This document shows, piece by piece, positions 28,393-56,174 of a stretch of DNA of 64,000 bases. Made by a program: the position numbers and the translations under genes. The notes under the pieces are model-generated. The model saw nothing but the letters and a program-made list of their open reading frames with translations. It searched no databases and was not told the origin of the DNA. Positions within the stretch are counted from its first letter, which is position 1; every line of letters starts with the position of its first letter. Location of the stretch: IMG/VR virus record IMGVR_UViG_3300045988_168611, positions 1 to 64,000 of that record. The stretch is one strand, 5' to 3'. Origin of the DNA: a virus.

Positions 28393-28490
28393 GAGAGAGC
28401 GCTGCATGGAACAAGTCCATGTATGTGAGAGGGCTGATTAACCCTCGACCGACATCCTGCGGGATGAGATGAGAAAGGAGGGTGGTCATT

Positions 28491-29054
28491 ATGGCTACTC
28501 TACGTGGTAAGGGTTCGATGAAGTCGGTGGAACTGGTCGTTGTGGAGTATCCCAACGCTCATTCCAAGGATGGCAAGCGTGCCTTCCTCGACGTGATGGT
28601 TCGACCTGTTGAGGGCGCTGCTCCTCAGCGAGTTCCTCACCTGGTTTCGACCAAGAAGGAACTCGACGGTAAGACCGTCTACGACCATCATGCTGGCTAC
28701 AGCGCTTCTCAGCGCGATGCGTTCGTTGCAGCTGCGGGCGATAACATCGTCCAGATGCCGGAGCGCAACGGTCGACCTGGTCCGACTGTTTACGCCATTC
28801 AGGCGGATGTCATGTCTGCCTCTGGCAAGCAGAAGGGCTTGGTCATCAACTCCAAGACGGTGAAGCCGTCCGAGTTGGAGCCGATCGACGAGAACATTCT
28901 CGATACGATCTACGCCTCTTCCAAGGCTGCTGCCGAGGCCGACAAGGCCCGTAAGGCTGCTGAGAAGGAGGCGCAGACTGAGGCTGCTGCTGAGGCCCAG
29001 GTTTCCGAGCCTGAGGTCGAAGAGGTTGCCGAGATCGACGAGCCTGAGTTCTGA
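28491..29054 (+). CDS. hypothetical protein with SSB-like architecture (folded N-domain, A/E/K-rich linker, acidic tip ...EIDEPEF)
   Basis: ATG 28491 after AAAGGAGGG. I could not confirm an OB fold by eye. Confidence 0.5.
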   Translation: MATLRGKGSMKSVELVVVEYPNAHSKDGKRAFLDVMVRPVEGAAPQRVPHLVSTKKELDGKTVYDHHAGYSASQRDAFVAAAGDNIVQMPERNGRPGPTVYAIQADVMSASGKQKGLVINSKTVKPSELEPIDENILDTIYASSKAAAEADKARKAAEKEAQTEAAAEAQVSEPEVEEVAEIDEPEF

Positions 29055-29139: not shown

Positions 29140-29160
29140 TAGAATGACTGGTACACCAGT
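29140..29160 (+). promoter_or_regulatory. -10 TAGAAT (29140-29145, preceded by TGC) plus the palindrome ACTGGT-AC-ACCAGT at the predicted TSS
   Basis: Read directly. The ORF-track ATG at 29144 lies inside the -10 hexamer. Confidence 0.4.
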
Positions 29161-29197
29161 CGAATCGATAGAAATGATTGAAAGATGGAGGAAAGAT

Positions 29198-33047: not shown

Positions 33048-33082
33048 TCACATACAACCGAATCGATCGAAAGGATTTGTCT

Positions 33083-35356
33083 ATGCTGTTTGGTAAGAAG
33101 GACGACACCAAGGTCGTCGACGAGCAGGTTGCTTCTGCCCCTGTTCTTGATAAGAAGGCTCAGAAGGCTGAGGCCAAGAAGGCCAAGGACTCTCTGGCGC
33201 TTGTCATCGATGAGACGGAGCCCGGTGCGGCTCTTGATCTCATCCGTAACAACGAGCGTTGGGCACTCCCCAATGGGGCTGGTGTCATCCTGTCTCTCCC
33301 CGTTGATGCACCCATCGAAGAAGGCGGTATCGGTGGCCTGGGCAAGGTCTCGTCCAAGGGGGACGAGAACAAAGGCTCGATTCTCCAGCGAATCGCTGAC
33401 GATAAGATTCAGGTCCTGATGACCCAGGATATGCTTCGTCACAACATTTTGGGCATTATCCCCACAGAGCAGTCTCTGAGCCCCGAAGGCATGGGTGAGT
33501 ACACCCTCTTCGACAAGGCTATTTTCATGCTCACGTCTGTTGACACGCGCGATGGGGCTCTCGTTGTGAACCCGATTCACTATGACGAACTGGCCGGTGT
33601 TCTCGACGTGCCTACTGGGGATGCCGATACGGTTACCCTGGCTCAGGCTCAGGCTATCTCTTCTGGGGCTGTGTCTCTGGCTTCTCTGATCCCGTCGCTG
33701 TGGCGTCGTCTGGGTGGCGAGGTTGACACTGAGTCGGTTGATTCGGAGTCCGAGGATCTCGTTGAGGATATTCCCGCGCCGCCATCGACAGACCATGCAG
33801 ATGAGTCTCTGGAAAATGTCGACAATCTGCCGGATTTCGACCCCGATGAGGTTCCAGACGAGCCTCTGGAAGACGAGCTTCCGTTCGATGAGGGCTCGTA
33901 TGACGACGATGATTCTGACATTGAAGATCCGTTCAAGGATCTCGATGTTGCATCGGATGTTGACACCGAGTCTGAGACTGATTCGTTTGGGGATGTTCCC
34001 GAGGTCGCAGAGAACCCCATCCCTGCCCCTGTCGTCGACAACCGTGTCTTCGATCGTGAGGCGGTGCGCAACACGATGGCGCGCAGGTTCCTCGATGAGG
34101 ATCTGGGCTTCACTGTCGATATGACGCCCTTCGAGGCCCTGTTTGGTCATGAAGAGGACGAAGCAAGCCGTTTCTCGCTGGATCATCTCAGCGATGAGAA
34201 CTGGCTCGATGGTCAGATCAAGCTGCTGTCTCAGCAGGCGAATGATGCACTGGCCCAGCAGCGTCGTCGTGACATCAGTGAGCTGCGCGATCTTTTCTTC
34301 TCGCTCGTGTCCAACACGGGCGATGAGATTGCTGCCCAGATGAGCACCGGACCTGGTGCTGACAACGTGTGGGCTCAGACGTTGGCTGAGGCTGATGCGA
34401 ACGCCGAGAAGTCTCGTGAGAGCCTTGTGGACATCGTGGGTGCACAGCGCGCCGCCATCATCGCCAAGTACGAGAAGGATAAGGAAGCGGATGCGCAGGC
34501 TAAAGCCGTGGAGGCGAAGTCTCTCTACGACGTGCGGCACAAGCCCAGTCTCGATCGAGAACTCGATGAGATTGAACCGAATCTCCGTGCAACCATCGAC
34601 GAGGATTACACTCTTCGTCGTCGCCAGATTCTCGATGCGCGCAAGCAGTCTGCGCAGGCTTCTTTCGACGCGGCTCTTACTCGCGTGATGGATCACCTGA
34701 TTCAGAAGCGCTCTGAGCAGGTTGCCCGTGAAGCGGAGCTCATGGAGCAGTTCCGTGACGATATGGGTCAGTTCTTGGATGAGAATCGCAAGGAAGACAT
34801 CGCTCGTGCCGAGGCTCTGCGAGAGCAGTTGTCTCGTGAGAATATCGTCGAGCAGAAGACTGTTGAATTTGCTGCTCGTGAGAAGGAGCTGCATGAGCAG
34901 ATCGCGCGTGAGCGCGAAGAGGCCGAGAAGCGTGCTCTGGCTGCTCAGGAGGAAACCAATAAGACTCTGGCGCGTATGCGTGAAGAGTGGGCTGTTCAGT
35001 TGGCTCAGGCCAAGGCTGAGGTCGAGCGTGCGAATGCGCGCACGGAAGAGGAAGCCGCTCGTGTGAATGTGGTGCGTGAGGAAATCTCGCGTCAGTATGA
35101 GAGCCAGATTGCTTTCCTGGAGAACGATCAGAAGACGCTGATGGCGCAGATGGACCGTGAGAGCCTTGTCGCCAAGCGCGCCAATCGTCTCTACATCGCC
35201 TTGGCGGTGCTGGTCGCTTTCGCGTTCCTCGCACTGGGTGTCATCGCTGGCATTCTGATTCACACTGCGTTCGGTGATGCACATACCGCAGCTGCGGCGA
35301 TCGCTGATGTCTCGGCACAGGTGAGCACCAATAGCGCAGCATCAATCGGTGTGTAA
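33083..35356 (+). CDS. hypothetical protein: acidic disordered middle, long coiled-coil, C-terminal TM anchor
   Basis: ATG 33083 after AAAGGA. D/E-rich tract. E/R/A/Q heptad-like region. C-terminal LYIALAVLVAFAFLALGVIAGILI. Confidence 0.6.
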   Translation: MLFGKKDDTKVVDEQVASAPVLDKKAQKAEAKKAKDSLALVIDETEPGAALDLIRNNERWALPNGAGVILSLPVDAPIEEGGIGGLGKVSSKGDENKGSILQRIADDKIQVLMTQDMLRHNILGIIPTEQSLSPEGMGEYTLFDKAIFMLTSVDTRDGALVVNPIHYDELAGVLDVPTGDADTVTLAQAQAISSGAVSLASLIPSLWRRLGGEVDTESVDSESEDLVEDIPAPPSTDHADESLENVDNLPDFDPDEVPDEPLEDELPFDEGSYDDDDSDIEDPFKDLDVASDVDTESETDSFGDVPEVAENPIPAPVVDNRVFDREAVRNTMARRFLDEDLGFTVDMTPFEALFGHEEDEASRFSLDHLSDENWLDGQIKLLSQQANDALAQQRRRDISELRDLFFSLVSNTGDEIAAQMSTGPGADNVWAQTLAEADANAEKSRESLVDIVGAQRAAIIAKYEKDKEADAQAKAVEAKSLYDVRHKPSLDRELDEIEPNLRATIDEDYTLRRRQILDARKQSAQASFDAALTRVMDHLIQKRSEQVAREAELMEQFRDDMGQFLDENRKEDIARAEALREQLSRENIVEQKTVEFAAREKELHEQIAREREEAEKRALAAQEETNKTLARMREEWAVQLAQAKAEVERANARTEEEAARVNVVREEISRQYESQIAFLENDQKTLMAQMDRESLVAKRANRLYIALAVLVAFAFLALGVIAGILIHTAFGDAHTAAAAIADVSAQVSTNSAASIGV

Positions 35357-35454: not shown

Positions 35455-35513
35455 TAGGTTGGTGAATCAACCGAATCGAAACGACGTAAGAGAAAGGTAG
35501 AAAGGTGGTGCAT

Positions 35514-38500
35514 ATGGCTTTCGGACGAAAGAAATCCGGTGGAGCAGCGCCCCGTGAACACGGTAGCCAAGCGTGGAATCAACTCGGTAAGCAGGATGAG
35601 CTTGACTCACTGGCTTACCAGGATGTTCATGGTGACCAGCAGCTAGAACGTAGTGACATCGAGGCAAAGATCTCTCCGGTGTCGCGCGAAGTCGCATCGG
35701 CTGTTGCCGGTGTGCTCGTCTTCATCCTCGTGTGGGCATTGTTCTCGTTTGGCACGATGGGTGTGACCATGGGCCGTGACGCCCTGTGGCGTTCGTCTGT
35801 TCCGAGCTACGCAGTACAGAACAAGGCTCTGACGAAGGAGCTGGGCAAGCCTGTGTGGAGCGAAGGGTGTTTCTCCCCAGCTCTGGAAACAGGTGAGATC
35901 GATACGTCCGATGAGACGTGCTATGAGGATGCTGAGGATGTTCCTGAGCCACAGTGGCACGTGGATGCCGTCGCAGCAGAAAAGGCTGATCGAGATGCTG
36001 AGTTGGCTCAGCGTCCGAACAGTGCGATCGGTTGGATGCTGTCGTTCGATTGGCTGAAGTTCGTCATGTCGTCGATTGCTGGTCTTGTTGTGTGGGGCTT
36101 GCTGCGTATGCGTTTGCTGCGCAACCTCAAGGCGCAGAATCTCATGCGCGATACCACTGACATCAACCAATACAAAAATGACCAGCACGTAGCACTCCCC
36201 GAAGAAGTGCGTGAGCGTTTCGATGTGGTGCCTGATGTGGGTGCGCACACGGGCGTGAGTGCAACGACGCTGATCTCTCACTCGATGGTTTCGAACAAGG
36301 GCATCGAGAAGGTTGCGTTTGCACAGCGAGCTGAGAAGGACATTCTCGATGAGGATGGCGATGTGGCTCTGTTCGAGGGAGAAGCTCTCACGGACGACAA
36401 TGGCGATGTTGTGACCAAGATGGTTCCGATGTTTGACGAAGAGTTCGGCACAGCCCTGTGGAACGCATCAGGACTGCCGGATAACAAGCAACTGCGTCGC
36501 CGTCTCGATCCTCGTAACGTGCCGTACAACCCAGGCAATGCCAACCGAGATAAGCTCAAGGGTTTCAATACCCTGGCTGATCTGGTGAACGGTGAGTGGG
36601 AACTTCCAACGTATGAGCCACAGCGTCCGGCTGGCGTCTACTACGTGGATACAGCTCCTGCGAACACCATGATTCTGGCTATGACTCGTGCCGGTAAGGG
36701 TCAGACGTACATTGAGCCAATGCTCGATATTTGGATGCGTCAGAAGCGTCCAGACAACATGATCATCAATGATCCTAAGGGTGAGCTCTTGGTGAAGAAC
36801 TATGTCCGCGCTACCATGCGCGGATTCCAGGTTGTGCAGTTCAACCTCATCAATGCCATGAAGACTGACATCTACAACCCTCTCGGAATGGCGGCTGAGG
36901 CTGCTCGTGAGGGTGACCAAACCAAGTGTGCTCTGTATGTCGAGAACATCGCAGATGTCTTCTTCCCTGTGGACGGCGCAGAAGATCCCGTGTGGCCGAA
37001 CGCTGCGAACAACGCGTTCAAGCGTGCAGCATATGGTCTCATTGATTACTACCTGGAAGAAGAGCACCAGCTGCGTCAGTACGCGATGCGCCACGGTATG
37101 GATCAGAAGGTTCTGGAACAGAAGCTCGATGCCATGTGGGGCAAGGTGACGCTCTACAACTGCTACCAGCTGTTCGTGCAGCTCACGAGTAAGAAGCGTA
37201 AGTCTCCGATGACTCAGGTGAACGAGCGCATCAAGAGCGGCTACTACGATCAGCAGTCGTCCGATCCTGATGAAGTCGACGCTCTGATTGAGCACGACAA
37301 GATGCAGGCTGAGCGCATTGAGTTCCTGTGGGAAGGTAAGCCGGAGTCTGACCTGCTCACCCTGTTCTTCAACGCCACTGAGGCTTTGCCTCAGTCGACG
37401 ATGCGTACGTTGATCGCTAACGCGAACAACGCGCTGCGTGCAATGGCTGGAGCCGAGAAGATGCTCGCATCTGTGTACGGTATTGCTATTACGGCAATGT
37501 CATTCTTCACGGATCCGACGATCTCTACTTTGACCTCTGGTACGCCGTCGCAGAACACCGACCTTGGGGGTCTGTCGTTCCCTCGTCGTTTCGGTGTGCG
37601 TTTTGCTCAGAACTTCACCAAGCGTGATGGTCTTATTGGCGCTCAGGCGAAGTGGGATGCATTTGATGATCCTGAGTTGAAGCACAACCTCGGTAAGGAT
37701 TTCGAGCACGAGGATACTGTGGTTCGAGAAGGATGGGCCCGGTACTATTTCGACGGTAAGTTCCCACATGACGTTGCCTACCTGCGACTGCGTTTGTTCA
37801 ACACCCATACGGGTGTTCTCCTGAAGACGTTCTACTTCCAGTTCACGAAGGGCTACCAGCTCTCGCTGAATGGTCGTAAGTTCGTCAAGGATCCGATCAC
37901 GGGTCAGAAGATCGTCCGTAATGGTGTTCTTGTGGAGATGGTGAAGGGTGAGAACGGTGTTCTCGTTCCTGGTCATCTGCGTTATCCGGCAACCCGTCTG
38001 TTGGATAAGGCTGGCAGTCTCAAGACTGTGCGAGAGAATGTTCCTGCGATCATCTTGTCGTCGGTTCGTTACTCGGAGCAACCAAAGGCTGTGTTCCTCG
38101 TGACGCCGCCTCACTTAATGAAGTACGCGAAGCTCGTGCTGATTCTTGTGAAGCAGTTGGTGGATCTGAATTTCGACAAGTCGTATATGACGAAGGCAAA
38201 CCAGAAGCCGCTCTACAAGACTCGTTTCATGTTGGACGAGCTCGGCAACTTGCAGTCTGAGGGCCACGGTATCTCTGGTTTTGAGACCATGCTCTCCATT
38301 GGTCTGGGTCAGGAGCAGCAATTTACGCTGATTCTTCAGACGTTGCAGCAGGCCAGAGACGTGTATGGCGACAGTGTGGATAAGATCATCCAGGGTAACG
38401 TGGCGAACATTGTGTTCCTGAAGTCGACGGATGACACGATGATCGAAACTTTGGCCAAGATGTCTGGTACACGCCACCGCGCTGTGCGAGATTCGAAGAC

Positions 38501-39560
38501 GGTGACTCAGGATACTGAGCGTCTCATCGAAGGTTTGAACGTTGAGGGCAAGGTGTCGTACACGATCAGTGCGAAGGAGGAAAGTGTCATCGGGTACAAC
38601 GATTTGGCGTTCTTGCCGGAGCGTAACTCGATTATCTTCTCGGCAGGCATCTCGCCAATCTGGAACCGTAATGCGGAGATTCTTCCGATGTCGTGGCGCT
38701 TGTTCAGCAACACCATCAAACACCCAGGTCACGAGTATTCGCTACAAACTATTCCGACGCTCTCGTCGGCACTAGAGTTTGACGTGCGTCTCAACCAGCC
38801 TGACTTCATGAAGATGCTCGATAAGCGTATCGAGCAGGCTGCAAATGCAGCTGAGGCGATGGAGTTGTACCAGGAGGCATACGATCTGGATGATTATGGC
38901 ATCTCGATTCTGGATCCCGATGTGTACTCGGCTGAGGTTATGGACCTCATCGCCTCGATCGAGGAAGAGCGTAAGGGCCACGACATGGAGAACGAAGAGT
39001 ATGACATGGACAGTGACGAGGCTCTGCGTGCTCAGTTGGGCTCTGGTTACGACATGTTCAACGAGGATGACGAGATTAACGAAGATGTCCGAGAGGATCT
39101 TGCTGCTCGTCAGGAGATGTTGGCCGATCGAGCGAAGATGCGCTACGCGGAAGGTCAGATTAGCCGTGAGCATCTGATGAGTGAGAGTGGACAGGTGTTG
39201 CACCATCTCGATGGTGACATCATTGCTGCGTATCGTGAAGCGAAGCACCCAATGGCGTCTGATGCACGGTTCTTCAGAACCGATGCGAATGGTTCGCTGT
39301 GCTCGTTGGATGGACAGATGTACATCAGTCAGGGTGTGTCGAGTGATGAGCTGCGTACTCTCCAAGCTGCATCGTCCGATGAGACGAGCGGTGTGTATGC
39401 AGACGATGAGTCGATCTCTGAGATCGCGGATCTGGGCTCGTGGCGAGTTCATGATGCGTTCTATAGGTTCTTGCACGGCCTGGAGTCGTGGGAGGATCTC
39501 GGCGGAGGCGCTTTCGATCGCGCTATTGCGCGAGTGTTCGAACGTCGAGAGAACGAGTGA
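35514..39560 (+). CDS. type IV coupling protein (VirD4/TraG/TcpA family) with a long acidic C-terminal extension
   Basis: N-terminal TM helices. Walker A AMTRAGKGQT (36684-36707; cf. TRSGKG of the TraG/VirD4 family). Walker B region FMLDELGNL. Confidence 0.8.
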   Translation: MAFGRKKSGGAAPREHGSQAWNQLGKQDELDSLAYQDVHGDQQLERSDIEAKISPVSREVASAVAGVLVFILVWALFSFGTMGVTMGRDALWRSSVPSYAVQNKALTKELGKPVWSEGCFSPALETGEIDTSDETCYEDAEDVPEPQWHVDAVAAEKADRDAELAQRPNSAIGWMLSFDWLKFVMSSIAGLVVWGLLRMRLLRNLKAQNLMRDTTDINQYKNDQHVALPEEVRERFDVVPDVGAHTGVSATTLISHSMVSNKGIEKVAFAQRAEKDILDEDGDVALFEGEALTDDNGDVVTKMVPMFDEEFGTALWNASGLPDNKQLRRRLDPRNVPYNPGNANRDKLKGFNTLADLVNGEWELPTYEPQRPAGVYYVDTAPANTMILAMTRAGKGQTYIEPMLDIWMRQKRPDNMIINDPKGELLVKNYVRATMRGFQVVQFNLINAMKTDIYNPLGMAAEAAREGDQTKCALYVENIADVFFPVDGAEDPVWPNAANNAFKRAAYGLIDYYLEEEHQLRQYAMRHGMDQKVLEQKLDAMWGKVTLYNCYQLFVQLTSKKRKSPMTQVNERIKSGYYDQQSSDPDEVDALIEHDKMQAERIEFLWEGKPESDLLTLFFNATEALPQSTMRTLIANANNALRAMAGAEKMLASVYGIAITAMSFFTDPTISTLTSGTPSQNTDLGGLSFPRRFGVRFAQNFTKRDGLIGAQAKWDAFDDPELKHNLGKDFEHEDTVVREGWARYYFDGKFPHDVAYLRLRLFNTHTGVLLKTFYFQFTKGYQLSLNGRKFVKDPITGQKIVRNGVLVEMVKGENGVLVPGHLRYPATRLLDKAGSLKTVRENVPAIILSSVRYSEQPKAVFLVTPPHLMKYAKLVLILVKQLVDLNFDKSYMTKANQKPLYKTRFMLDELGNLQSEGHGISGFETMLSIGLGQEQQFTLILQTLQQARDVYGDSVDKIIQGNVANIVFLKSTDDTMIETLAKMSGTRHRAVRDSKTVTQDTERLIEGLNVEGKVSYTISAKEESVIGYNDLAFLPERNSIIFSAGISPIWNRNAEILPMSWRLFSNTIKHPGHEYSLQTIPTLSSALEFDVRLNQPDFMKMLDKRIEQAANAAEAMELYQEAYDLDDYGISILDPDVYSAEVMDLIASIEEERKGHDMENEEYDMDSDEALRAQLGSGYDMFNEDDEINEDVREDLAARQEMLADRAKMRYAEGQISREHLMSESGQVLHHLDGDIIAAYREAKHPMASDARFFRTDANGSLCSLDGQMYISQGVSSDELRTLQAASSDETSGVYADDESISEIADLGSWRVHDAFYRFLHGLESWEDLGGGAFDRAIARVFERRENE

Positions 39561-41543: not shown

Positions 41544-41584
41544 TAGAATGGAGGGCGTAATACCCGATCGATCCAGTGGATCGA
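41544..41584 (+). promoter_or_regulatory. -10 TAGAAT (41544-41549) plus the leader hairpin TCGATCC-AGT-GGATCGA (41568-41584)
   Basis: Read directly. The ORF-track ATG at 41548 lies inside the -10 hexamer. Confidence 0.4.
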
Positions 41585-41607
41585 AACTCCAGGAAGGAGA
41601 ATGCGTT

Positions 41608-44600
41608 ATGCAAACGCGCAATGCCGGACTCCGGCGTTACATGTACGAGCACATGATCGCTCGTACGATCAATCGAACCTCAGAATTGACCAAGACTCCC
41701 ATTCTTGTGTCGCAAGGTCGACGCCTGAGGGATCTCATGGAAGAGCGTCTCAACGAACAAGGCCGTTCTTTCAACGATGGTGATCTCCCTGTTGCTGATG
41801 CGTTGAACGCTATTCAAAGCGTCATGCAGGAGAACGTTCCCGGTTACAAAGACTTGTTCCAACCTGCCGATACGTCGAGCAAGGGTTACAAGGCCCTGTA
41901 TGAAGAGTTCAGGAACATGGTCGGTCTGAATGGCTCTGCTGGAGCTGCTGGTCCTCGTCTGCCGATCTCTCCGTATGATCCTCGGTGGGGGAGCCGTCGC
42001 ACTGTGAAGCAGGCGGGAACGTCTATCCTGTACGTTCTTGATGGTGACATCGCTGCGTATGCAGACGGTAAGCCGAGCAATGTTGAGAAGGTGACGACCT
42101 CGGAGCTCACTCTGTACCGCCTGACTGACGAAGGGAAGGCCAAAGAAGCAGGCCGCGCGTTGAGCCTTGATGATGTCTCGGGTCTCACCGAGCTCATGGG
42201 TCGTATGTCGACGGCTGAGTACAACGAGGTTCGTCAGTGGGTGCTGGACGGTGCTCGCAACCCTGAAACGGGGCGTTACAACGCCCGTCAGTTCATGAGC
42301 ACTGAGGCATTGGCTCGTTCCCGAGCTGTGCTCGATATGCTGGCGGAAGAGGGAATTCCGTACACGATCGAGAAGGATCTGCGTCCTGGCCAGATTCGTG
42401 CGCGTTTGACGGGCACGAATATGACAGTGCGCCTGACTGATACTCGCGACAAGGAGCAGTGGGTGGGCCGTGTTTACGACAACGGTGCGACTTTGTACTT
42501 CTCCACGACGGCTCGTCGAGACAACAAGCAGGTGGCGTATGTGCCAACTGTTGACGAGGTGTGCGACCTCGTGCGCGTTGCGTTGGGTCGACCGGTGGAG
42601 CGTAAGGACGGCAAGGGCCTCGTGGGCCGAGTGGGCGAGCGTCAGACCAGCAAGGGTAAGACGGTTCAGGAGTCGTATCTCTCCACTGGAACACTGACGA
42701 GTGCGTACAAAGACATGCCCGGTATGAACAGTGAGCAGATCGTGATTCGTCGTCAGATGAAGGAGCGTTCTGCGTCGTCCCGGTTCTTTGCTGATACACC
42801 AGAGGGCCGTGAGCAAGCGTCGGCATTCATCTCTGATGCAGTTCACAGCGCTCGCCACAACGTGGCTGAGCAGCTGGATGTCGATGGTCTGATCCAGCAG
42901 TTCCGCGATCACGAGGATGCTGCCCGTGAGGGCGCGTACATCCCTATGTTGTCTGGTGATCCTGATCTGGCGGCAGTTGGCCGTGCGTACTGGGATGTGC
43001 TTCGTGGTGCTGAGACGACGCTACTGAAGCCCGAGGCTACTCGTGCTGAATACGCTGAAGCGACGGGTCTGCTTGACGACATGGATCAAGAGAGCGATCT
43101 GTCGGGTGTTCACGACATGTTGGTTGGTTCCGTGGCGTACACGGGTACCCCGGAAGAGCGCGTTCGCGCTCATCTTCGGGATCTTCTCGATACCCAGATC
43201 GGTATCGATGAGCCTATCGACTCTGATGACTTCGTGTTCGATCCGGTGCGCGTTGCTCGTTACATGGCGAGTGAGCACGGCCAGTGGCGCAATAATGATG
43301 ATCTCGTGGCAGCTATGCGCAGTGCAGGTGTGCCCCAGGAGAAGATCGTCGGGGAGTCGTTCTACTCCAACACGTTCCGCGATCGACTGATCACTTTCGA
43401 TGAGTCCACGGCGTTGCCGATGGATGTCGTGGAGGATACCTTTACTCAGTCGATGCTCCAGGTCGTGTCGGATACGCTGGAGTCCTGCGCTGTGACGCCC
43501 GGTTCTATCCGCGTCGACGCCAACGGTGTTGTGGAGTGGACTGGCTCGATCATGCGCTCGCAGACAGGTAAGGAAGAGCCCGTGAGCGGTACGATCGGAC
43601 AGATCTTTGCTCGCGGCGAGAACGGTGAGATCATCACCCGGTTCAATTCCGGTAACGATCTGATGATCGTGCCTGGTTTTGATGCCCGTGTGGTGGCACA
43701 GAAGCCTGGGGAGAACAAGTCCCTCGAAGAGCGCACCCGGCTGATCGGTTACGAACAGCAGATGAGTGACGCGATTCGATACCGAGTTCAGGCTGATGTG
43801 CTCTCAGGTCGTTCCCGTGTGGGCGAGCCTGCCTCGCTGAACAGCGTGTACCGTCGTTTGTCGGATACGCGCCATCGCGCGGATCACTACGAGCGCGCTC
43901 TCGAAGAAGGCATGGATCGGAAGATCCTTGATGCCATTCTTGCTACCGAAGCGCGTCGTGTGCGTTACCCGAACGCTTTGCGTGATGGGTCGACGATCGA
44001 CGCTGACTTCCGTGCATCTCGTGCTCGGGAACAGGGTATTGGTGGCGATCCGGCCAACGACACGACCATGGATCCGTGGGTGTTGACCGGCGGTCGCAAT
44101 ATGTCGTTGCTCAGCGAAGAAGCCGATGGCTACTTCGATCCGATCATGACATCGGGCGGTGTGAACCAGGGTGTCACCCGTTACCTCGTGTCCGGTGCGC
44201 AGGTGAACCCTGATGGTTCGATCGTGCGTTCTGATAAGAACGATCGTGCGCCGCTGATGTTGACTGAGCAGGCTCAGCTGATGAGCTACGACCCGTTCGA
44301 TCGTCAGCAGATGACGACCTCCAATCTCATGAACGCATCGTCTGTGACGAAGCCTGTGGGTACGGCGTTCATGACTGCCGGTGGTTGGACGATGGAGGAC
44401 TCCATCGTTGTGTCTGCTGACTTCGCTCGTCAATACCGTGTTCGTGGCACTGATGGTCAGATGCGTGATCTGATCGTTGGCGACAAGATCTCTGACATGC
44501 ACGGCAACAAGGGTGTTATCTCGCTCATTGTTGACCGTGACGCGGATCTGTCTCCTGATGAGATCGAAGAGCTTCATGGGTCGACCGATATGATGACGCT

Positions 44601-47058
44601 CTTCCGGGAGAATCCGGGTCTGGATGTCGTCATGGCACCGTTCAGCGCTGTGTCTCGTTTCAACGGTGGTTCTGCCCGTGAGGCAATGCAGGAGACTGCG
44701 CCGCTTCGTTTGCCCAACGGTACGACCGTTGAGGCCGGTATGGGTAAGGTGTCGTTCATCGGTACCCATATGACGGTGGATGCAAAGACAGCCGCATACG
44801 ATGAAGCTGCGATCCGGGCTGGCCAGGGCCGTAAGGCGTCGTCTCAGCTTGCGTGGGCGTTGCAGTCCCAGGGCTGCGATAAGGTGCTGGAGCAGATGTA
44901 CGGTGGCAACCTACAAGCTCTTGCACAGCTGCGTGAGATGGCTCTGGTGTGCGGTTTGGACATCGAGCCTGATGGCACCTTGCGTGATGGTCATGATGAT
45001 CTTGCTGTCGGTGGGCAGCGCCGTCTCATTGAGATGGGCGATGTTCCGCTCACTGAACGTGGATCGTTCGACGTGCGTCGCGTTCGTAACGATTTCGCTT
45101 CGTTGATTGGTGACGCTGGCGGTGATATGGAGATTCCGTTCCCGCTGACGATGCCAACGGGTGCTCGTACGCCTCATGCGACTGATACGACGTGGCGTGT
45201 GCCGGTGCTGAGCTCGCATCTGCGATCGGGCCAGGATCTTGACGACGGTACGTCGACGGTCCATGACTACACGTATCGCTACCTTGCGATCCGTGAATGG
45301 TCGCTGCGCTACAAGCATGCTGCTGATCGAGCTGCGTCTGGTGAGCTGACTGGCAAGGAGCTTTCTGATGCTCGTCGAACGATGGCTGAGGCGATGCATC
45401 GCGCTCAGACTGCGTACGATGGCATTGCACAGGACATCATGCGTCGCCGGTTCACCGGCAAGCGCAATGTCTTCAAGGAAGGTCTCATGGCTTCGCGTCT
45501 GCCGCACTCGGCCACTGCTGTGTGGACGGGTGATCCTCGTCTGGACATCGACCAGGTCGGTGTTGGCCCGGAGCTGGCGAAGAAACTGCATCTGCGTGAC
45601 GGTGATTACGCGCTTGTGTGGCGTGACCCCGTTCTTCGTGATGCGGGTGTGCGTTACATGCGCGTGAGCCTTGACGATCGTCTCACTGGTGTGAGTGTCA
45701 ATCCCAATATGGTCAAGTGCTTCGACGGCGATTTCGATGGTGACTCTGTTGCCGTCGTGAAGCTGGGTGATGGTCCGGCACATGAGCAAGCGCTGGAGCG
45801 CCTGACTGTCGAGGCTAACCTCATTGATCTGGGTCAGAGCATGGATGACGAGGGTCGTTACCCTCTTGCGATGCACAACGCGCTCGATGTGAAGGTGTCG
45901 CAGCACTACGATTCTCGTCATGCGGATGCGATGGATGAGGTCCACCAGCGTGCGAACGACGCCTACTATGATCTCGTGGAAGGGGAGGCTAATCGCGAGC
46001 AGTTCCTGGACGAGGGTCGTGATGTCGTGGATGCAGCGTCCTACATGTACCGTGAGGCGCTCAAGCATCAGTACGGTGAGGCTGTGTTGTCGTTTGGTTC
46101 CGTTCAGGAGCACATGAAGTCTGTGGAGGCTGCGTGTATTGAGACGGGAGCTAAAGGCTCGCCTAAGAAGATGCTGGATTATGCTCGATACATCGGGTAT
46201 GACCCGGAGAACCAGGTGGATCTGGTGACCACGCGCGTGACGCGCGAGGAACAGCTGGGTACCATGTATGCAACGGCTGTGAAGTCGTTTGGTACCGGTG
46301 TTGCCGGTACGTTCTCTCAGCGCGGCGTGCGAGCTCTTCGTAACGACGAGCTCAAGGCTGTGTTGGAGCTGACGTACCCGGTGACGCAGAGTATTCTGCA
46401 AGCCAAGCACGATCCGGTGGATGCTCGTCACCGGTATGAGCTGCTGATGGGTCCGGCTCGAAGCTTGTGGCGTGGTCAGGCGATTGCACAGGATGGCAAC
46501 GGTGTGTGGAACACTGTGACGGACGACGATCGTAAGCCGGTTCAGGCCACCAAGGATCAGTGGGTTGCCATGTTCTCGCAGTTCTACGGCGATGCAGGTC
46601 TGGGTGTGGCTGTGAACAGCGACAACATCACGAAGGTTGCAAATGCGCTCAGCGATAGCAACGGAGTGATGGTGAACCTGGAAGATGAGAAGGTCATTGA
46701 GCAGCTTGCTTCTCCGATGGATCGTCTGGCTTACGGCGGTGACTTCACCACGATGCAAGCGTTGGCTGAGGCTCACGCTAACCTGTTCGAGGGTCAGTGG
46801 AACGCCAAGTTTGCGCCAGCTCGTGTGCGTGAGGTGATGGAGGCCGATGTGGAGACGCAGGCCGAGGCACCGGTGATCGCCATGGAAGACACAGTGGCTC
46901 GTGTGGATCGTGATGAGAAGATCGGTCGACGTAAGTCGACATCGTGGGCTGTTCCGGTGCGTTCGCATACGGGTACCAGTGCAGCTGAGCGTTACGGTCT
47001 GACGGCACAGGTGGACAATGAGGCAGATGTGTCTGTCGACGACGGTTTCGAGTTGTGA
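41608..47058 (+). CDS. single-polypeptide fused beta/beta'-like two-barrel RNA polymerase (1816 aa)
   Basis: ATG 41608 after AGGAAGGAG. RpoB-like FMTAGGWTMEDSIVVS, VGDKISDMHGNKGVIS and DVVMAPFSAVSRFNGGSAREA. RpoC-like KRNVFKEGLMASRLPHSATAV, FDGDFDGDSVAV and ETGAKGS. Confidence 0.8.
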   Translation: MQTRNAGLRRYMYEHMIARTINRTSELTKTPILVSQGRRLRDLMEERLNEQGRSFNDGDLPVADALNAIQSVMQENVPGYKDLFQPADTSSKGYKALYEEFRNMVGLNGSAGAAGPRLPISPYDPRWGSRRTVKQAGTSILYVLDGDIAAYADGKPSNVEKVTTSELTLYRLTDEGKAKEAGRALSLDDVSGLTELMGRMSTAEYNEVRQWVLDGARNPETGRYNARQFMSTEALARSRAVLDMLAEEGIPYTIEKDLRPGQIRARLTGTNMTVRLTDTRDKEQWVGRVYDNGATLYFSTTARRDNKQVAYVPTVDEVCDLVRVALGRPVERKDGKGLVGRVGERQTSKGKTVQESYLSTGTLTSAYKDMPGMNSEQIVIRRQMKERSASSRFFADTPEGREQASAFISDAVHSARHNVAEQLDVDGLIQQFRDHEDAAREGAYIPMLSGDPDLAAVGRAYWDVLRGAETTLLKPEATRAEYAEATGLLDDMDQESDLSGVHDMLVGSVAYTGTPEERVRAHLRDLLDTQIGIDEPIDSDDFVFDPVRVARYMASEHGQWRNNDDLVAAMRSAGVPQEKIVGESFYSNTFRDRLITFDESTALPMDVVEDTFTQSMLQVVSDTLESCAVTPGSIRVDANGVVEWTGSIMRSQTGKEEPVSGTIGQIFARGENGEIITRFNSGNDLMIVPGFDARVVAQKPGENKSLEERTRLIGYEQQMSDAIRYRVQADVLSGRSRVGEPASLNSVYRRLSDTRHRADHYERALEEGMDRKILDAILATEARRVRYPNALRDGSTIDADFRASRAREQGIGGDPANDTTMDPWVLTGGRNMSLLSEEADGYFDPIMTSGGVNQGVTRYLVSGAQVNPDGSIVRSDKNDRAPLMLTEQAQLMSYDPFDRQQMTTSNLMNASSVTKPVGTAFMTAGGWTMEDSIVVSADFARQYRVRGTDGQMRDLIVGDKISDMHGNKGVISLIVDRDADLSPDEIEELHGSTDMMTLFRENPGLDVVMAPFSAVSRFNGGSAREAMQETAPLRLPNGTTVEAGMGKVSFIGTHMTVDAKTAAYDEAAIRAGQGRKASSQLAWALQSQGCDKVLEQMYGGNLQALAQLREMALVCGLDIEPDGTLRDGHDDLAVGGQRRLIEMGDVPLTERGSFDVRRVRNDFASLIGDAGGDMEIPFPLTMPTGARTPHATDTTWRVPVLSSHLRSGQDLDDGTSTVHDYTYRYLAIREWSLRYKHAADRAASGELTGKELSDARRTMAEAMHRAQTAYDGIAQDIMRRRFTGKRNVFKEGLMASRLPHSATAVWTGDPRLDIDQVGVGPELAKKLHLRDGDYALVWRDPVLRDAGVRYMRVSLDDRLTGVSVNPNMVKCFDGDFDGDSVAVVKLGDGPAHEQALERLTVEANLIDLGQSMDDEGRYPLAMHNALDVKVSQHYDSRHADAMDEVHQRANDAYYDLVEGEANREQFLDEGRDVVDAASYMYREALKHQYGEAVLSFGSVQEHMKSVEAACIETGAKGSPKKMLDYARYIGYDPENQVDLVTTRVTREEQLGTMYATAVKSFGTGVAGTFSQRGVRALRNDELKAVLELTYPVTQSILQAKHDPVDARHRYELLMGPARSLWRGQAIAQDGNGVWNTVTDDDRKPVQATKDQWVAMFSQFYGDAGLGVAVNSDNITKVANALSDSNGVMVNLEDEKVIEQLASPMDRLAYGGDFTTMQALAEAHANLFEGQWNAKFAPARVREVMEADVETQAEAPVIAMEDTVARVDRDEKIGRRKSTSWAVPVRSHTGTSAAERYGLTAQVDNEADVSVDDGFEL

Positions 47059-47087
47059 TCATCATGTGATCATGCGCTGAAGCTATG

Positions 47088-47125
47088 AAGAAGCAGGTCT
47101 CGCCTTTAGGTGGGGCCTGCTTCTT
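47088..47125 (+). terminator. hairpin AAGAAGCAGG.../...CCTGCTTCTT (10 perfect bp, extended by G-U/G-C pairs)
   Basis: Read directly after the stop at 47058. Confidence 0.6.
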
Positions 47126-47170
47126 TGTATTAGTGGAGGCTGGCTTGTGTCGTAATCGTTGCAATAGTGC

Positions 47171-47189
47171 GATATACTGGTATACGAGT
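47171..47189 (+). promoter_or_regulatory. promoter/operator box GATATACTGGTATACGAGT
   Basis: 16 of 19 nt identical to 32972-32990 (GATACCCTCGTATACGAGT). Related to 9676-9695. Confidence 0.4.
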
Positions 47190-47213
47190 CGAATGCAACT
47201 AAACGAAAGGAAG

Positions 47214-48566
47214 ATGGTCATGTCGACGATATGGTACGAGGGTCCAGCTGATGGCAACATTCAGAGGCGTTACGGTCTTGATTCTCATGAGTGGGTGGGA
47301 TCGCTGTCCGATAGGGTGGCGACAATCATTGACAAGGATGATCCTTGGAAGGAAACGCATGTGAATGCGCTTCTGCGTGATGGTGTGGAATTCTTTGCGC
47401 AGAAGTCTCAGGATCATCCAGAATTGGGTGATGATGACCAGATGCGTGATGCTGTCTCGTATGTGGCACACAGCGGTGTTCTCATCGATGATGAGACTCT
47501 GTTGGCTCTTATAGAAGCGGATGACAAGTATGTTGTTCCGTTTGGTGCAGAGTCGCTTATGTATGAATACAACAAGATGCATCAGCCTGATTACGGACGG
47601 CTGTATCAGCGTGAGCGTGATGCTGCACAGTTGCCGTACGCGGAGGCAACAGATGAAGAGATCAAGCAGTACTATGGCCTTGATCCACATGAGTGGAAGG
47701 GGAGCCTTGCCGATAAGGTGATGGCGATCGTCAACAAGAATACGCCTGACAAGGAAACGCATGTGAATGCGCTCTTGCGCGATGGCGCACGTCTGTTCGC
47801 TCAGAATATGGAAGCTCAACCGGTATCGGGTGTGAGTGACGATGATTTGCGTTACGCGGTGGAATCTGGTGGCGATGAGCTGCGTGCTGCCATCTCTGAC
47901 GCATCATGGGCTGGTGTCCTCATCAACGATGAGGCGATGGAAGCTATCAAGCATGTGGAGAAGGAGTACATCACCGAGTTTGGTGGAGATTCTCTCACAC
48001 GTGCGTACGATCAGATGCGCAAGTTGAACGATGCGCGCGCTCATTACCGCGAGGCTGCGAAGGAGATGCGCACGGCTGCCCCTGTTGCTCCGGCTCCGAC
48101 AACCCCGAGTTTTGATCGGTTCGCTCCGCCTCAGGGTGCGCGTGTGACGACGGTTCCGCCGCCTGTGCGTACTGTTGGGTCTGCTCGATCTGCCCGCTCT
48201 GTACAGCCTGTGCAGTCTGTGCCGCCTATTCCTCAGCCCCCGAAGACGCCGGGATCTCAGGTTCGTACAGGTGGTCCTGTGCGAGTGGGTAATGTCGCCA
48301 AAGATTGGCTCGCGTCGATGGGTCGTGACGAGAAGGGTCATCCTCTTGCGTCTGCGCCTGCACCGTCTGCACAGTCCCCTGCATCGTCTGGGCCTAAGAT
48401 TCCGGCTCAGCGATCGGGTTCGATTCAGGCTGCGCTCCCTGGCAGTGGTGTCACCGTGGGTCGATCGACGCCGCGTGTGCCACCTACTGCTGGTACAGCT
48501 CGTCGTATGAGTGCTCCTGAGCCCCAGGTGCAGACCCCAAGCGTTGATGACGGCTTCGAGCTGTAA
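47214..48566 (+). CDS. hypothetical protein with an internal tandem duplication, a Pro-rich tail and a C-terminal ...VDDGFEL
   Basis: ATG 47214 after GAAAGGAAG. Repeat units start YGLDSHEW (47271) and YGLDPHEW (47673), and both contain KETHVNALLRDG. Confidence 0.6.
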   Translation: MVMSTIWYEGPADGNIQRRYGLDSHEWVGSLSDRVATIIDKDDPWKETHVNALLRDGVEFFAQKSQDHPELGDDDQMRDAVSYVAHSGVLIDDETLLALIEADDKYVVPFGAESLMYEYNKMHQPDYGRLYQRERDAAQLPYAEATDEEIKQYYGLDPHEWKGSLADKVMAIVNKNTPDKETHVNALLRDGARLFAQNMEAQPVSGVSDDDLRYAVESGGDELRAAISDASWAGVLINDEAMEAIKHVEKEYITEFGGDSLTRAYDQMRKLNDARAHYREAAKEMRTAAPVAPAPTTPSFDRFAPPQGARVTTVPPPVRTVGSARSARSVQPVQSVPPIPQPPKTPGSQVRTGGPVRVGNVAKDWLASMGRDEKGHPLASAPAPSAQSPASSGPKIPAQRSGSIQAALPGSGVTVGRSTPRVPPTAGTARRMSAPEPQVQTPSVDDGFEL

Positions 48567-48608: not shown

Positions 48609-50282
48609 ATGGTTCGCCCACCTCGTCAACTTCCAGCACCTCGGTACGGGGGTGACGTTGGTCCGCAGAAGGATCAAGACGAAACTGCGACGATGGTTGT
48701 TACCAAGGAGCAGATTTTCGATGAGAAGCCTGAACCTGCCGAGCCTACCCAGGCAGTAGAGCCAAAGCCTGCGCTTGATTGGGCGCAACAGCTGAGGCTT
48801 GATATGCGCTACCACGCTGATGGGTATCTTCATGCTCTCAGCCAGATCGATATGAAGTCGATGAAGCGAAAGGCTGACATCGCTTCTCGCATGAACGATC
48901 TTCAGGGTAAGCACAAAGCGTATGCCTCGATGATGGTTCTCAGCGCTCTCATTCCACTGAAAGACGGTGTGTCGATGTCGGCTGTGGCCGAATCTGTTGG
49001 CATGGGCGTCACGATGTGGATGCTGTCGCCTAACTTCCGTCAACAGGTGAAGTCGTTTGCTCGCGATGCTCGTATGGCTGTCGAAGACATGGCAGAGGCT
49101 CGTCGACGCAGTCAGTCGAAACAGTTGCATGATCAGGCCGATCGACATCGGCAGAAGCATGGTGGTGAACTACCGCCATCTCTGAAGCGTCGTCTGGAGC
49201 GTATTGAAGCCAAGGAGCGTAATGGTCGCATCCCGTTTAATGAAGCGAGTGCGGCGTTGACACATCTCGGTTTGAGCGAAGCGATGTTCAACCAGATGCG
49301 TCAACCTGGTGTGGATCCTGCTGGGGTCCAAGAGGGCTATGCACACCTGATGGAGCGTTTCTGGGACGATGTTCAGAAGGACGGCCTGGACCCTGAACGA
49401 GTGAACACCGTCAGCCGCATGCTTATGGGTCAACGGATGCGTTATGAGCCTCATTGGGCGAATGCGTTCGTTGAGACGGCTCATGGTGAAGTCGACATGG
49501 ACATGGTGGAGCAAGTGGATGCTCAGACGGGTGAACCGCGTCGAACGTGGACCGGTATCTGGTCCACGCGCATGGGCGAGCCCATCGTGGGCGGTTCTTT
49601 CACTGTCCGTCCTCCGTACAACGAGATGCAGCATGAGTTGTCTCTGAGTACGTGCATGGCTCGTGAGATGGAGCGTGCAGCGCTGAATGGCAACATTGCG
49701 GATTTGAACGAATCGCTGCTTGCCTATGGTTCTGCCTGGTCTGTTCGGGACAAGAACCTGGATGTGCACAGCGTTCCTGGTGCGATGGGTGAGAAGATTC
49801 GTCGAGCTCGTCGTGGTCTCGATGCCATGGAATTCGATGGTTTCGATCGAGATGCGCAGCGAGACATCTATGCGACATCGTTCGTTCACGCCATGGACAT
49901 GGTGGCGAAGGCTCACCCGGACATCGAACGTCACTGGGCGCAGCAGTATGGGTCTCAGTGGCGATCAGAAATGCGAGACTTCGCAGCGACGCCTGAAGAG
50001 ACCTACAACCGGTGGCAACGGGGGGAGTTTTATTCTGATGCACGTGAATCTCCAGGGCATGACAACGCCCATGCGGATCCCCACACGGAGCGTATGAGGG
50101 AAGACTCAAGGCGCAGGCGCAGCGCGTACAACCGCGCGCGTGACAACCAGGAGTACAACGCTCATGAGACATCAGCGTTTAGCGCTGATACTGATTTCGA
50201 ACTCAACGATGTCGACGACGGGTTTGACATGGGTGGGTACGATCGACCTAATGACAATGATGGCTTTGAGCCGTCTCTATGA
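48609..50282 (+). CDS. hypothetical protein (557 aa) with an acidic-aromatic C-terminus (DTDFELNDVDDGFDMGG...NDGFEPSL)
   Basis: ATG after AAAGGAGG. No recognisable domain. Confidence 0.6.
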   Translation: MVRPPRQLPAPRYGGDVGPQKDQDETATMVVTKEQIFDEKPEPAEPTQAVEPKPALDWAQQLRLDMRYHADGYLHALSQIDMKSMKRKADIASRMNDLQGKHKAYASMMVLSALIPLKDGVSMSAVAESVGMGVTMWMLSPNFRQQVKSFARDARMAVEDMAEARRRSQSKQLHDQADRHRQKHGGELPPSLKRRLERIEAKERNGRIPFNEASAALTHLGLSEAMFNQMRQPGVDPAGVQEGYAHLMERFWDDVQKDGLDPERVNTVSRMLMGQRMRYEPHWANAFVETAHGEVDMDMVEQVDAQTGEPRRTWTGIWSTRMGEPIVGGSFTVRPPYNEMQHELSLSTCMAREMERAALNGNIADLNESLLAYGSAWSVRDKNLDVHSVPGAMGEKIRRARRGLDAMEFDGFDRDAQRDIYATSFVHAMDMVAKAHPDIERHWAQQYGSQWRSEMRDFAATPEETYNRWQRGEFYSDARESPGHDNAHADPHTERMREDSRRRRSAYNRARDNQEYNAHETSAFSADTDFELNDVDDGFDMGGYDRPNDNDGFEPSL

Positions 50283-52790: not shown

Positions 52791-52843
52791 GTGCGCTCCT
52801 TTCGAGTAGGGGAGTAGGGAATTAAGTAGATAGAGTGTGAGGG

Positions 52844-52883
52844 TGCCACATTGCCCCTGGGAAACCCCAGGGGCAATGTGGCA
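52844..52883 (-). terminator. 17-bp perfect hairpin after the helicase gene
   Basis: TGCCACATTGCCCCTGG / CCAGGGGCAATGTGGCA with a 6-nt loop. Confidence 0.7.
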
Positions 52884-52904
52884 GGAGGACGGCATAAGGG
52901 CTTG

Positions 52905-56045: not shown

Positions 56046-56064
56046 ATGAGCCCTCCTTTCTTTT

Positions 56065-56091: not shown

Positions 56092-56174
56092 TGTGTGCAT
56101 GCGCACTATCGATCGGCCTGTCAGCGTATATTGCCAACAGGCCGACCGATGAGAATGGTGATTGGGATTGGTGA

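Follow-up and report, generated by a model that had tools for sequence, protein, structure and literature searches.

The stretch of DNA analyzed here, called the window, comprises 64,000 nucleotides (nt), positions 1 to 64,000 of the IMG/VR virus record IMGVR_UViG_3300045988_168611, and it encodes a single-chain, two-barrel RNA polymerase (RNAP) among genes for conjugative transfer. The open reading frame (ORF) of this RNAP spans 41548..47058 on the + strand and, counted from its first ATG, encodes 1836 amino acids (aa); residues are numbered from this ATG below. The true start is likely to be the ATG at 41608, which gives a gene of 41608..47058 (+) and a protein of 1816 aa, because the ribosome-binding site (RBS) AGGAAGGAG lies ahead of this ATG at 41591-41599, the alignment of 29 homologues opens at its methionine, the closest database protein (P0001) is 1816 aa long, and residues 1-23 of the longer form were modelled as disorder with a predicted local distance difference test score (pLDDT) below 50. 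Counted from this start, the length of 1816 aa given in the initial annotation was borne out. However, the start coordinate given there, 41544, is not a codon but the first base of TAGAAT (41544..41549, +), a hexamer that resembles a sigma-A-type -10 element by consensus match only and lies about 58 nt 5' of the likely start codon.

Motifs of both large subunits of cellular RNAP were found in this protein, and all those quoted in the initial annotation were present where it had placed them. On the beta side, the motif FMTAGGWTMEDSIVVS (aa 941-956, 44368..44415, +) was aligned with residues 670-696 of Thermus thermophilus beta; its D951 is invariant, and by homology it would form the Mg-binding E-D site. 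The barrel motif VGDKISDMHGNKGVIS (nt 44476-44523, +) carries the invariant K980 and K988, which are the predicted pair of catalytic lysines, and Pfam RNA_pol_Rpb2_6 matched at aa 971-997 with 28.6 bits (gathering score 23.4). A third beta-type motif, DVVMAPFSAVSRFNGGSAREA (aa 1026-1046, 44623..44685, +), in which R1037, N1039, G1041, and R1044 are invariant, was likened to the ...PSRMNIGQ segment of beta by resemblance only and not by tool alignment. A profile of aa 900-1110 matched beta/Rpb2 subunits only, with T. thermophilus beta as the best match (E 8.4e-6), and aligned both the E-D motif and the GDK..HGNKG motif.

The beta'-type motifs follow in the same chain. The switch-2 region, FTGKRNVFKEGLMASRLPHSATAVWTGDP (aa 1302-1330, 45451..45537, +), aligns with residues 324-374 of Rpb1 and with RpoA', and its residues N1307, M1314, S1321, A1322, W1326, and P1330 are invariant. 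The beta'-type double-psi barrel runs from WRDPVLRD to KCFDGDFDGDSVAVV (45619..45759, +) and was matched by Pfam RNA_pol_Rpb1_2 at aa 1348-1403 with 27.7 bits (gathering score 25.3). The motif WRDPVLRDAGVRYMRV is present at aa 1358-1373, R1359, D1360, and P1361 of WRDPVLRD are invariant, and so is the DFDGD triad D1395, D1397, and D1399 (nt 45730-45744) in the 29 homologues. Further downstream, ETGAKGSPKKM was found at aa 1532-1542. The best single-sequence match in the PDB was that between the beta' barrel stretch and the virion RNAP of phage P23-45 (8h2n_A, E 1.7e-6). When a family profile of 29 full-length homologues was compared with the PDB, all matches were to the largest subunits of RNAPs from bacteria, archaea, eukaryotes, and plastids (E 4e-8 to 2e-6; the top 60 profile hits were all DNA-dependent RNAP), and profile positions 1197-1410 aligned with residues 241-495 of E. 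coli beta' over about 210 residues.

Across homologues of 36-97% identity (n = 29), D951, K980, K988, R1037, R1359, D1360, P1361, D1395, D1397, and D1399 are all invariant, and so are A1535, K1536, G1537, L1617, Q1618, K1620, and H1621. A Staphylococcus homologue also retains the active-site residues (MDFDGD). The invariance of these residues indicates that the active site is under selection, and the RNAP is apparently catalytically competent. A canonical rpoBC fusion was rejected, because the NCBIfam rpoB models scored 18.2 and 14.4 bits (cut-offs 896 and 801) and the RpoA' models 27 and 24.7 bits (cut-offs 819 and 1043), far under the cut-offs, and because the flap is absent (see below). A chance match of motifs was also rejected, given two independent Pfam hits above threshold, the fold match described next, and residues that are invariant throughout the family.

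The structure of aa 640-1836 was modelled with AlphaFold2 (AF2) from 40 sequences, which gave a mean pLDDT of 86.5 and a predicted template modelling score (pTM) of 0.81. The top 50 PDB matches of this model in Foldseek were all bacterial beta' (best 5x22_D, E 9.7e-12), with alignments of about 950-1060 columns and a probability of 1.00. Among viral folds, the best match was a phage 'minor tail protein' (E 3e-11); parts of proteins from crAss-like phages were matched too. The succession of a beta-type and a beta'-type barrel in one polypeptide, as first annotated, is thus supported by profiles, the AF2 model, Foldseek, and gene context; the profile and structure comparison with RpoB and RpoC recovered both barrels and placed the protein in the two-barrel RNAP superfamily.

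Several elements of the cellular enzyme were then located in the model or found to be missing. The E-D and Lys-pair motifs lie about 20 residues apart in the window RNAP (profile positions 62 and 68), whereas in T. thermophilus beta the first ends at residue 696 and the second begins at residue 825, about 130 residues apart. Therefore, the flap (sandwich-barrel hybrid motif, SBHM) insert of cellular beta is absent. In bacterial RNAP the flap is the binding site of sigma region 4. Two long helices in the AF2 secondary structure (aa 1241-1263 and 1270-1301, model residues 602-624 and 631-662; 45268..45450, +) lie just 5' of the switch-2-like motif and may correspond to the beta' clamp helices; the profile alignment to E. 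coli beta' 241-495 covers this two-helix stretch. The GAKGS motif with the invariant A1535, K1536, and G1537 (46141-46173, +) is followed by a bridge-helix-like segment (46261-46338, +), which is a long helix in the model, and by a trigger-loop-like TQSILQAKH tip (46375-46416, +), which contains the invariant L1617, Q1618, K1620, and H1621. In the model, the long helix precedes a helix-QAKHD-helix hairpin with a break at QAKHD. These segments are tentatively assigned as bridge helix and trigger loop equivalents from motif resemblance, invariance, and model secondary structure only; phmmer with aa 1485-1717, which contain them, found no match in the PDB.

The N-terminal region (aa 21 to about 639, 41608..43464, +) is specific to the family, contains many invariant residues, and is conserved in actinobacterial homologues. 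Residues 1-700 were modelled confidently (pLDDT 86.0), but Foldseek with the N-terminal 700 aa found no PDB match at E <=0.001 (best E 0.014), and the few RNAP beta chains among its matches had E values of 1-2 and probabilities of <=0.04. The region may consist of diverged beta lobes or of a new fold. The lack of a significant structural match over about 640 aa agrees with the earlier remark that the first ~850 aa carry no assignable motif. Pfam scans of the 41 ORF products of the window revealed no sigma, alpha, or omega subunit, and within these scans the earlier statement that no such gene lies nearby holds.

The database protein P0115 matched the RNAP with an E value of 0 and 40% identity over 93% of the query. 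The 90% cluster that it represents includes BAB99168.1 of Corynebacterium glutamicum ATCC 13032, a protein of 2169 aa (the window RNAP has 1816 aa), which matches NCgl1702 by the organism and length given in PMC2919709. PMC7824862 names an NCgl1702-like family of mobile elements and states that its beta barrel has no SBHM flap. The original description of the family is that of Iyer, Koonin and Aravind (2003), as cited in PMC2919709. Judged from its sequence, the RNAP is a member of these NCgl1702-like fused beta-beta' RNAPs, which were predicted computationally about 20 years ago, and does not form a new family. It resembles them in having a beta and then a beta' barrel in one giant chain, a Lys pair and DxDGD, no flap, and a place on mobile elements. 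The identification as an RNAP therefore stood, but it needed a correction in that the protein is not an orphan; it is NCgl1702-like and nearer to cellular multisubunit RNAP than to YonO. No experimental work on the NCgl1702-like family, and no test of a role in conjugation, was found in the literature.

The distribution of the family was investigated by a HMMER search with aa 640-1500, which found 540 clusters (50% identity) at E <=1e-3, 355 of them at <=1e-30; among the 150 clusters listed, lengths were mostly about 1,700-2,900 aa, with few shorter fragments. In contrast to this number and to the fixed synteny described below, PMC2919709, which cites Iyer et al. 2003, calls NCgl1702 a fast-evolving orphan. 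When one genome per species was scanned, 69 loci were obtained; among their named hosts are Streptomyces, Arthrobacter/Pseudarthrobacter, Microbacterium, Kribbella, Nocardiopsis, Brevibacterium, and Promicromonospora. Complete chromosomes and plasmid-sized contigs are both represented among the loci, and therefore integrated and plasmid forms probably both exist. The nearest relatives (96% and 86% identity) are on two contigs (88 and 99 kb) of one metagenome-assembled genome (MAG) labelled 'uncultured Actinomyces sp.', and the protein clusters closest to the RNAP, two in number, contain 614 and 571 sequences that come from ENA and Logan (metagenome, sequencing-run) assemblies. The RNAP gene had no megablast match in the plasmid collection, and the 50,697 phage records gave no tblastn match to the RNAP at E <=1e-5, so neither collection contains this element as a sequenced plasmid or phage. 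Full-length homologues of 34-40% identity were also seen on a Parvibacter MAG (L047), a 'Clostridia' MAG (L060), and a 'Muribaculaceae' MAG (L067), which could mean either that the host range is wider or that mobile elements were mis-binned.

The neighbors of the RNAP gene were compared by tblastn of the window proteins against the 69 loci, counting matches on the same strand within 10 kb of the RNAP gene. The coupling protein of the type IV secretion system (T4SS), hereafter T4CP, is of the VirD4/TraG type and unusually long (1351 aa; 35505..39560, +; Pfam T4SS-DNA_transf, TraG-D_C, and TrwB_AAD_bind); it had homologues in 66 of the 69 loci, and in most of these the match ended within about 300 nt of the RNAP gene. 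Upstream of it, a ClpB-like double AAA+ ATPase (29144..32926, +; Pfam AAA_2 and ClpB_D2-small) and a conserved 759-aa protein (33077..35356, +; no family match) each had homologues in 65 loci, those of the latter terminating in a hydrophobic helix. A MobL-family relaxase (26024..28354, +; Pfam MobL, E 4e-64) was found upstream in the 11 loci whose flank extends that far, and a conserved 190-aa protein (28482..29054, +; no family match) had homologues in 28 loci; both were seen wherever the flank was long enough. On the other side, a 493-aa protein (47085..48566, +) was present in the closest relatives only, while a conserved 557-aa protein just 3' of the RNAP gene (48609..50282, +) had homologues in 67 of the 69 loci. 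This 557-aa protein gave no match in Pfam, NCBIfam, PHROG, or the PDB, even with a 19-sequence profile.

The co-directional order relaxase (in loci with a long enough flank), ClpB-like ATPase, 759-aa protein, T4CP, RNAP, 557-aa protein is conserved in 63-67 of the 69 actinobacterial loci, and the RNAP is a fixed component of the transfer module in this family of type IV conjugative elements of Gram-positive bacteria. The initial placement of the gene inside a transfer region was correct as far as it went, but the association is tighter than that: the T4CP is a fixed neighbor across Actinomycetota and co-occurs with the RNAP on Bacillota plasmids. PMC2919709 and PMC7824862 say only 'of mobile elements', whereas here the RNAP lies in a delimited T4SS module beside the T4CP. 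No literature linking the NCgl1702-like family with a coupling protein was found, although papers outside open access may describe such a link.

We also searched PLSDB (72,556 plasmids) for the same pair of proteins. RNAP homologues were found on 13 plasmids and this T4CP subfamily on 13, with 12 plasmids in common: those of Streptomyces sp. NBC_01454 and Rhodococcus fascians, Gordonia pGKT2, five of Staphylococcus, and four of Lactococcus. Together with the T4CP homologues near the RNAP gene in 66 of 69 loci, these shared plasmids answer the proposal to check whether homologues co-occur with T4SS genes. On the Staphylococcus plasmid SAP020A, a 1807-aa RNAP homologue lies two genes after the T4CP; the Staphylococcus homologue is about 26% identical to the window RNAP. 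The annotation of pGKT2 shows the same order of MobL ... AAA ... T4CP, RNAP, and conjugative transfer of this plasmid has reportedly been demonstrated. The tblastn alignment of the RNAP on pGKT2 spans 74366-79936 of the record (L071 20001-25571), yet the annotated coding sequence starts at 75722 and a small ORF is annotated on the opposite strand at 74570-74863; the RefSeq record may contain a frameshift or a mis-annotated start.

Other genes of a transfer system were present in the window. Besides the relaxase and the T4CP, these encode topoisomerase III (9727-11940) and a cell-wall hydrolase (Phage_lysozyme2, 20630-22567), and VirB4 was detected only as a weak N-terminal match. The protein concerned is a 294-aa product (11976-12860, +) that matched the N-terminus of a VirB4-type ATPase of integrative and conjugative elements (ICEs) with E 3.8e-5, far under the cut-off; the next ORF (13029-15167, +; 712 aa) had no family match, and the two may represent a split or highly diverged VirB4. 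The recognizable domains of the T4CP are confined to aa ~860-1050, and its ~850-aa N-terminal part is conserved in Actinomycetota and, from residue ~180-200, also in Staphylococcus plasmids. The ClpB-like ATPase has 1260 aa here and about 590-740 aa in homologous loci; it contains an intein, with LAGLIDADG_3 at aa 854-906 and Hom_end_hint at aa 656-691. Between the T4CP and RNAP genes, a 594-aa protein with four DUF4379 treble-clef zinc-finger repeats is encoded on the opposite strand (39644-41428, -). Only 5 of the 69 loci have a DUF4379 homologue in this position (on the + strand in L047), and the gene therefore looks as if it had been inserted between two genes that are otherwise contiguous.

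The C-terminal tails of the module proteins were also analyzed. Approximately the last 50 aa of the RNAP (46906..47055, +) are predicted to be disordered (pLDDT <50), and they contain a basic motif, IGRRKSTSWAVPV, at 46921-46959 and an acidic-aromatic tip, SVDDGFEL, at 47032-47055. The same polarity was seen in 255 full-length homologues, in which positions -40 to -20 carry a net positive charge and the last 20 residues a net negative one; a strict acidic-aromatic tip was present in 93 of the 255, whereas internal 10-mers of these proteins gave an expectation of about 22. Related acidic tails, in which a hydrophobic or aromatic residue lies close to the C-terminus, were found on six proteins of the DNA-processing module in the window: the 396-aa protein (24693-25883, ...DLDDPEF), the relaxase (26024-28354, ...DSMDSMELG), the 190-aa protein (28482-29054, ...EIDEPEF), the RNAP (41608-47058, ...SVDDGFEL), the 493-aa protein (47085-48566, ...SVDDGFEL, identical to the RNAP tip), and the 557-aa protein (48609-50282, ...DVDDGFDMGGYDRPNDNDGFEPSL, ending NDGFEPSL and with repeated DDGF motifs). 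The corresponding proteins of pGKT2 (L071) share another variant (..TSPGM, ..SPGPSL, ..SGPQLG, ..SEGLGA, and ..TGPELGA), while the Staphylococcus RNAP homologue (L070, SAP020A) ends in ..NDKGFELEM and P0115, the representative of the C. glutamicum cluster, in ..DGGFEL. A tail that differs between elements but is common within one points to a common receptor, and since the set includes the relaxase, a canonical T4SS substrate, the coupling protein is the simplest candidate for that receptor. The tail may therefore be a recognition signal for the coupling protein.

Promoter-like signals were examined as an indication of which enzyme transcribes the element. The intergenic regions of the + strand array typically contain a GC-rich hairpin followed by a -10-like hexamer: TGGTATGAT is located 5' of 22693 and of 35505, TAGAAT 5' of 13029, and TAGTAT 5' of 18646, and a full TTGACA-18-TATGAT was found at 28363-28392. 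The density of such hexamers was 3.9 per kb in intergenic DNA, compared with 0.66 per kb for the window as a whole. Neither a repeat search of the whole window nor inspection of the intergenic regions revealed a repeated non-host promoter motif on the + strand. Altogether there is moderate evidence that host RNAP would drive routine expression of the element, which leaves the RNAP of the element for a special task.

A different signal was found in the - strand region 56046-62173. The sequence TTTATTCA occurs in 6 copies (0.63 expected), with exact copies at 56065, 58834, 60642, 61990, and 62005 in this region and a sixth at 31332. The five copies lie in four consecutive intergenic regions, each after a GC-rich hairpin and abutting an AGGAGG RBS, and often a second copy, TTATTCAA, is located 13-20 nt upstream of TTTATTCA. 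The - strand genes that they precede encode a UvrD-like helicase, a ClpB-like AAA+ ATPase, a 568-aa protein, and an AAA_5 ATPase. TTTATTCA could be an operator or a non-sigma-70 promoter, conceivably one for the RNAP of the element. In the - strand orientation it was absent from the two loci L001 and L002, whose flanks stop near the first window copy, and one + strand copy was found in L002; in eight distant loci, the 80 nt upstream of the long - strand ORFs showed no similar motif. A MazF/PemK toxin gene (52437-52895, -) lies beside the UvrD-like helicase gene, and two tandem paralogous Endonuclea_NS_2 nuclease genes (2758-3552 and 3564-4370, -) lie near the left end of the window. A scan with Rfam at the gathering threshold and a tRNA scan found nothing in the window.

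Taken with the fixed gene order and the shared tail, these data lead us to favor, at slightly less than an even chance, a transfer-coupled, sigma-independent RNAP that is probably exported with the DNA and primes or transcribes the incoming strand. Such an enzyme would act on the transferred DNA and would not be the general transcriptase of the element. The coupling protein would recognize the disordered tail, export of the RNAP would accompany or follow that of the single strand, and the RNAP may be unfolded for this purpose by the adjacent ClpB-like ATPase. Once in the recipient, the enzyme would make RNA on the incoming strand without host sigma factors, and this RNA would prime complementary-strand synthesis, allow early expression of establishment genes, or both. 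The full proposal for the family, that its elements export their own RNAP via the T4SS with the tail as signal and unfolding by the ClpB-like ATPase, and that the enzyme brought by the donor primes or transcribes the strand, is in our view somewhat unlikely. The evidence leans towards two earlier proposals, namely that the enzyme acts on the incoming strand and that it is itself a T4SS substrate. It leans away from the idea that the enzyme takes over entirely from the host holoenzyme, because -10 elements of the host type are present ahead of the element's operons and of the RNAP gene itself.

The proposal has analogies among known systems. Relaxases of about 190 kDa traverse T4SSs, and host RNAP primes the single-strand origins of rolling-circle plasmids and of ICEBs1. 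Sog of ColIb-P9 and TraC of RP4 are large primases encoded in transfer regions that are exported to the recipient and prime the incoming strand. By analogy, the RNAP may be the plasmid counterpart of these exported primases and of phage virion RNAPs. Sog and TraC differ from it in fold, being DnaG/Toprim-type primases, so that the likeness would be functional only.

Several observations weigh against an exported, strand-directed RNAP. The adjacency of the RNAP and coupling protein genes could be a matter of co-regulation only, and on the Lactococcus plasmids the two genes are about 35 kb apart. The tail resembles the C-terminal tips of single-stranded DNA-binding protein (SSB) and could bind another hub of this kind, or it could equally have a role in assembly within the donor. 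The complete set of elongation elements, with the tentative bridge helix and trigger loop, would exceed the needs of a primase and fits a processive transcriptase. With regard to host promoters, a strict two-hexamer sigma-70 scan was not enriched (5 sites compared with 8.2 expected), and the enrichment of -10-like hexamers arises partly from the lower G+C content of intergenic DNA. Finally, the fact that no primase was recognized in the window counts in favor of such an RNAP, but the window is only part of the element, and a primase may lie elsewhere.

The main rival is a donor-side, element-specific transcriptase that is sigma-independent like YonO, which we consider somewhat unlikely. Its targets could be the long transfer array, whose genes are co-directional, or the block of divergent - strand genes, and the 557-aa protein could be its specificity factor. 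The full catalytic apparatus, probably with clamp helices, bridge helix, and trigger loop, would suit such an enzyme, as would the position of its gene within a co-directional array of about 45 kb, the conservation of the 557-aa partner in 67 of 69 loci, and the missing flap, which argues against the use of host sigma; TTTATTCA near four - strand genes could be its non-host promoter, and YonO provides a precedent (PMC5467207). However, host-type -10 elements are present ahead of the + strand operons and the RNAP gene, and no repeated novel motif was found on the + strand. TTTATTCA was likewise not recovered in - orientation from L001 and L002, although these two loci stop near the first window copy, and nothing similar stood out in the eight distant loci. 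Donor-side transcription would also fail to explain why the RNAP is so strictly paired with one T4CP subfamily and why it has a tail in common with the relaxase.

A second alternative, which appears quite improbable, is that the enzyme uses another template or makes another product, as a DNA polymerase (PolD-like) or an RNA-dependent polymerase (QDE-1-like) for establishment or for conflict with host defence. An Asp (D1393, nearly invariant, in DGDFDGD) occupies the position of beta' N458 in NADFDGD, and N458 contributes to ribose recognition. The two-barrel superfamily does include PolD and QDE-1 (PMC7708050, PMC9508822), but DNA-dependent RNAP subunits made up the top 60 hits of the profile and the top 50 that Foldseek gave in the PDB, with neither PolD nor QDE-1 among the matches listed. 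Moreover, R1359, at the position of beta' R425, is invariant, and the switch-2 and clamp-helix-like elements match beta'. A catalytically dead relic, kept because it serves the transfer apparatus as a scaffold or by binding DNA, would accommodate the ~1,000 aa outside the barrels that have no assigned function, but it is very improbable, given active-site residues invariant down to 36% identity and kept in the Staphylococcus homologue, and 540 clusters with few short fragments among the 150 listed.

The window RNAP was compared with known single-chain and mobile-element RNAPs. YonO of the Bacillus prophage SPbeta is a single-chain enzyme of about 100 kDa that transcribes late phage genes; no trigger loop could be detected in it, its homology to cellular RNAP is limited to a few residues, and its Asp triad has been shown to be catalytic (PMC5467207). 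Both proteins have the two barrels in one polypeptide, lack sigma, alpha, and omega, and are encoded by mobile elements. However, the window RNAP is twice as long, aligns with beta' over about 210 residues in sequence and about 1000 columns in Foldseek, and is tied to a conjugation module; its TQSILQAKH helix-loop-helix resembles a trigger loop, although without a phmmer match in the PDB, and the lack of any match among the 50,697 phage records at E <=1e-5 extends to YonO-like homology. The virion RNAP gp96 of Thermus phage P23-45, a fusion with the tail tape measure protein, is the enzyme that transcribes its pre-early genes (PMC10770324; 8h2n). It and the crAss-like virion RNAPs are likewise two-barrel enzymes, and delivery of an RNAP with the incoming DNA would be a further, analogous likeness; in contrast, the window RNAP is not in a virion, has no tail-protein fusion, and is similar to them in sequence only in the barrel.

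The window RNAP has the active-site motifs, the barrel order, and switch-2 in common with cellular beta/beta', and clamp helices, a bridge helix, and a trigger loop are probably common to both as well. It differs from the cellular subunits in having no flap, no alpha, omega, or sigma gene nearby, and about 640 N-terminal aa without a significant match to the beta lobes. A natural beta::beta' fusion occurs in Helicobacter (PMC2919709), and Orf6 of pGKL2, a yeast cytoplasmic killer plasmid, is an Rpb2::Rpb1 fusion (PMC2919709, PMC6211774). By description, Orf6 is also a plasmid-encoded single-chain fusion with the same subunit order, but it belongs to a eukaryotic cytoplasmic linear plasmid and is its general transcriptase. 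The gene context of the window RNAP is what we did not find described; of particular interest are its tight tie across phyla to one T4CP subfamily and the tail that it has in common with the relaxase.

Strand conversion and gene expression in a new host are usually ascribed to host RNAP acting at single-strand promoters or origins, or to exported primases. If the favored interpretation is true, a sigma-independent RNAP of the cellular type, tied to the coupling protein, would be a third route, parallel to the RNAPs injected by phages, and export of RNAP would be a feature of actinobacterial ICEs and plasmids as well as of staphylococcal and lactococcal plasmids. Because the family is large and widespread, its function matters for gene flow in Gram-positive bacteria of clinical and industrial relevance. 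The protein is also of interest for the evolution and engineering of RNAP, as a single chain with the barrel core and switch 2 and without flap or accessory subunits, and the idea of plasmids delivering their own RNA polymerase is directly testable.

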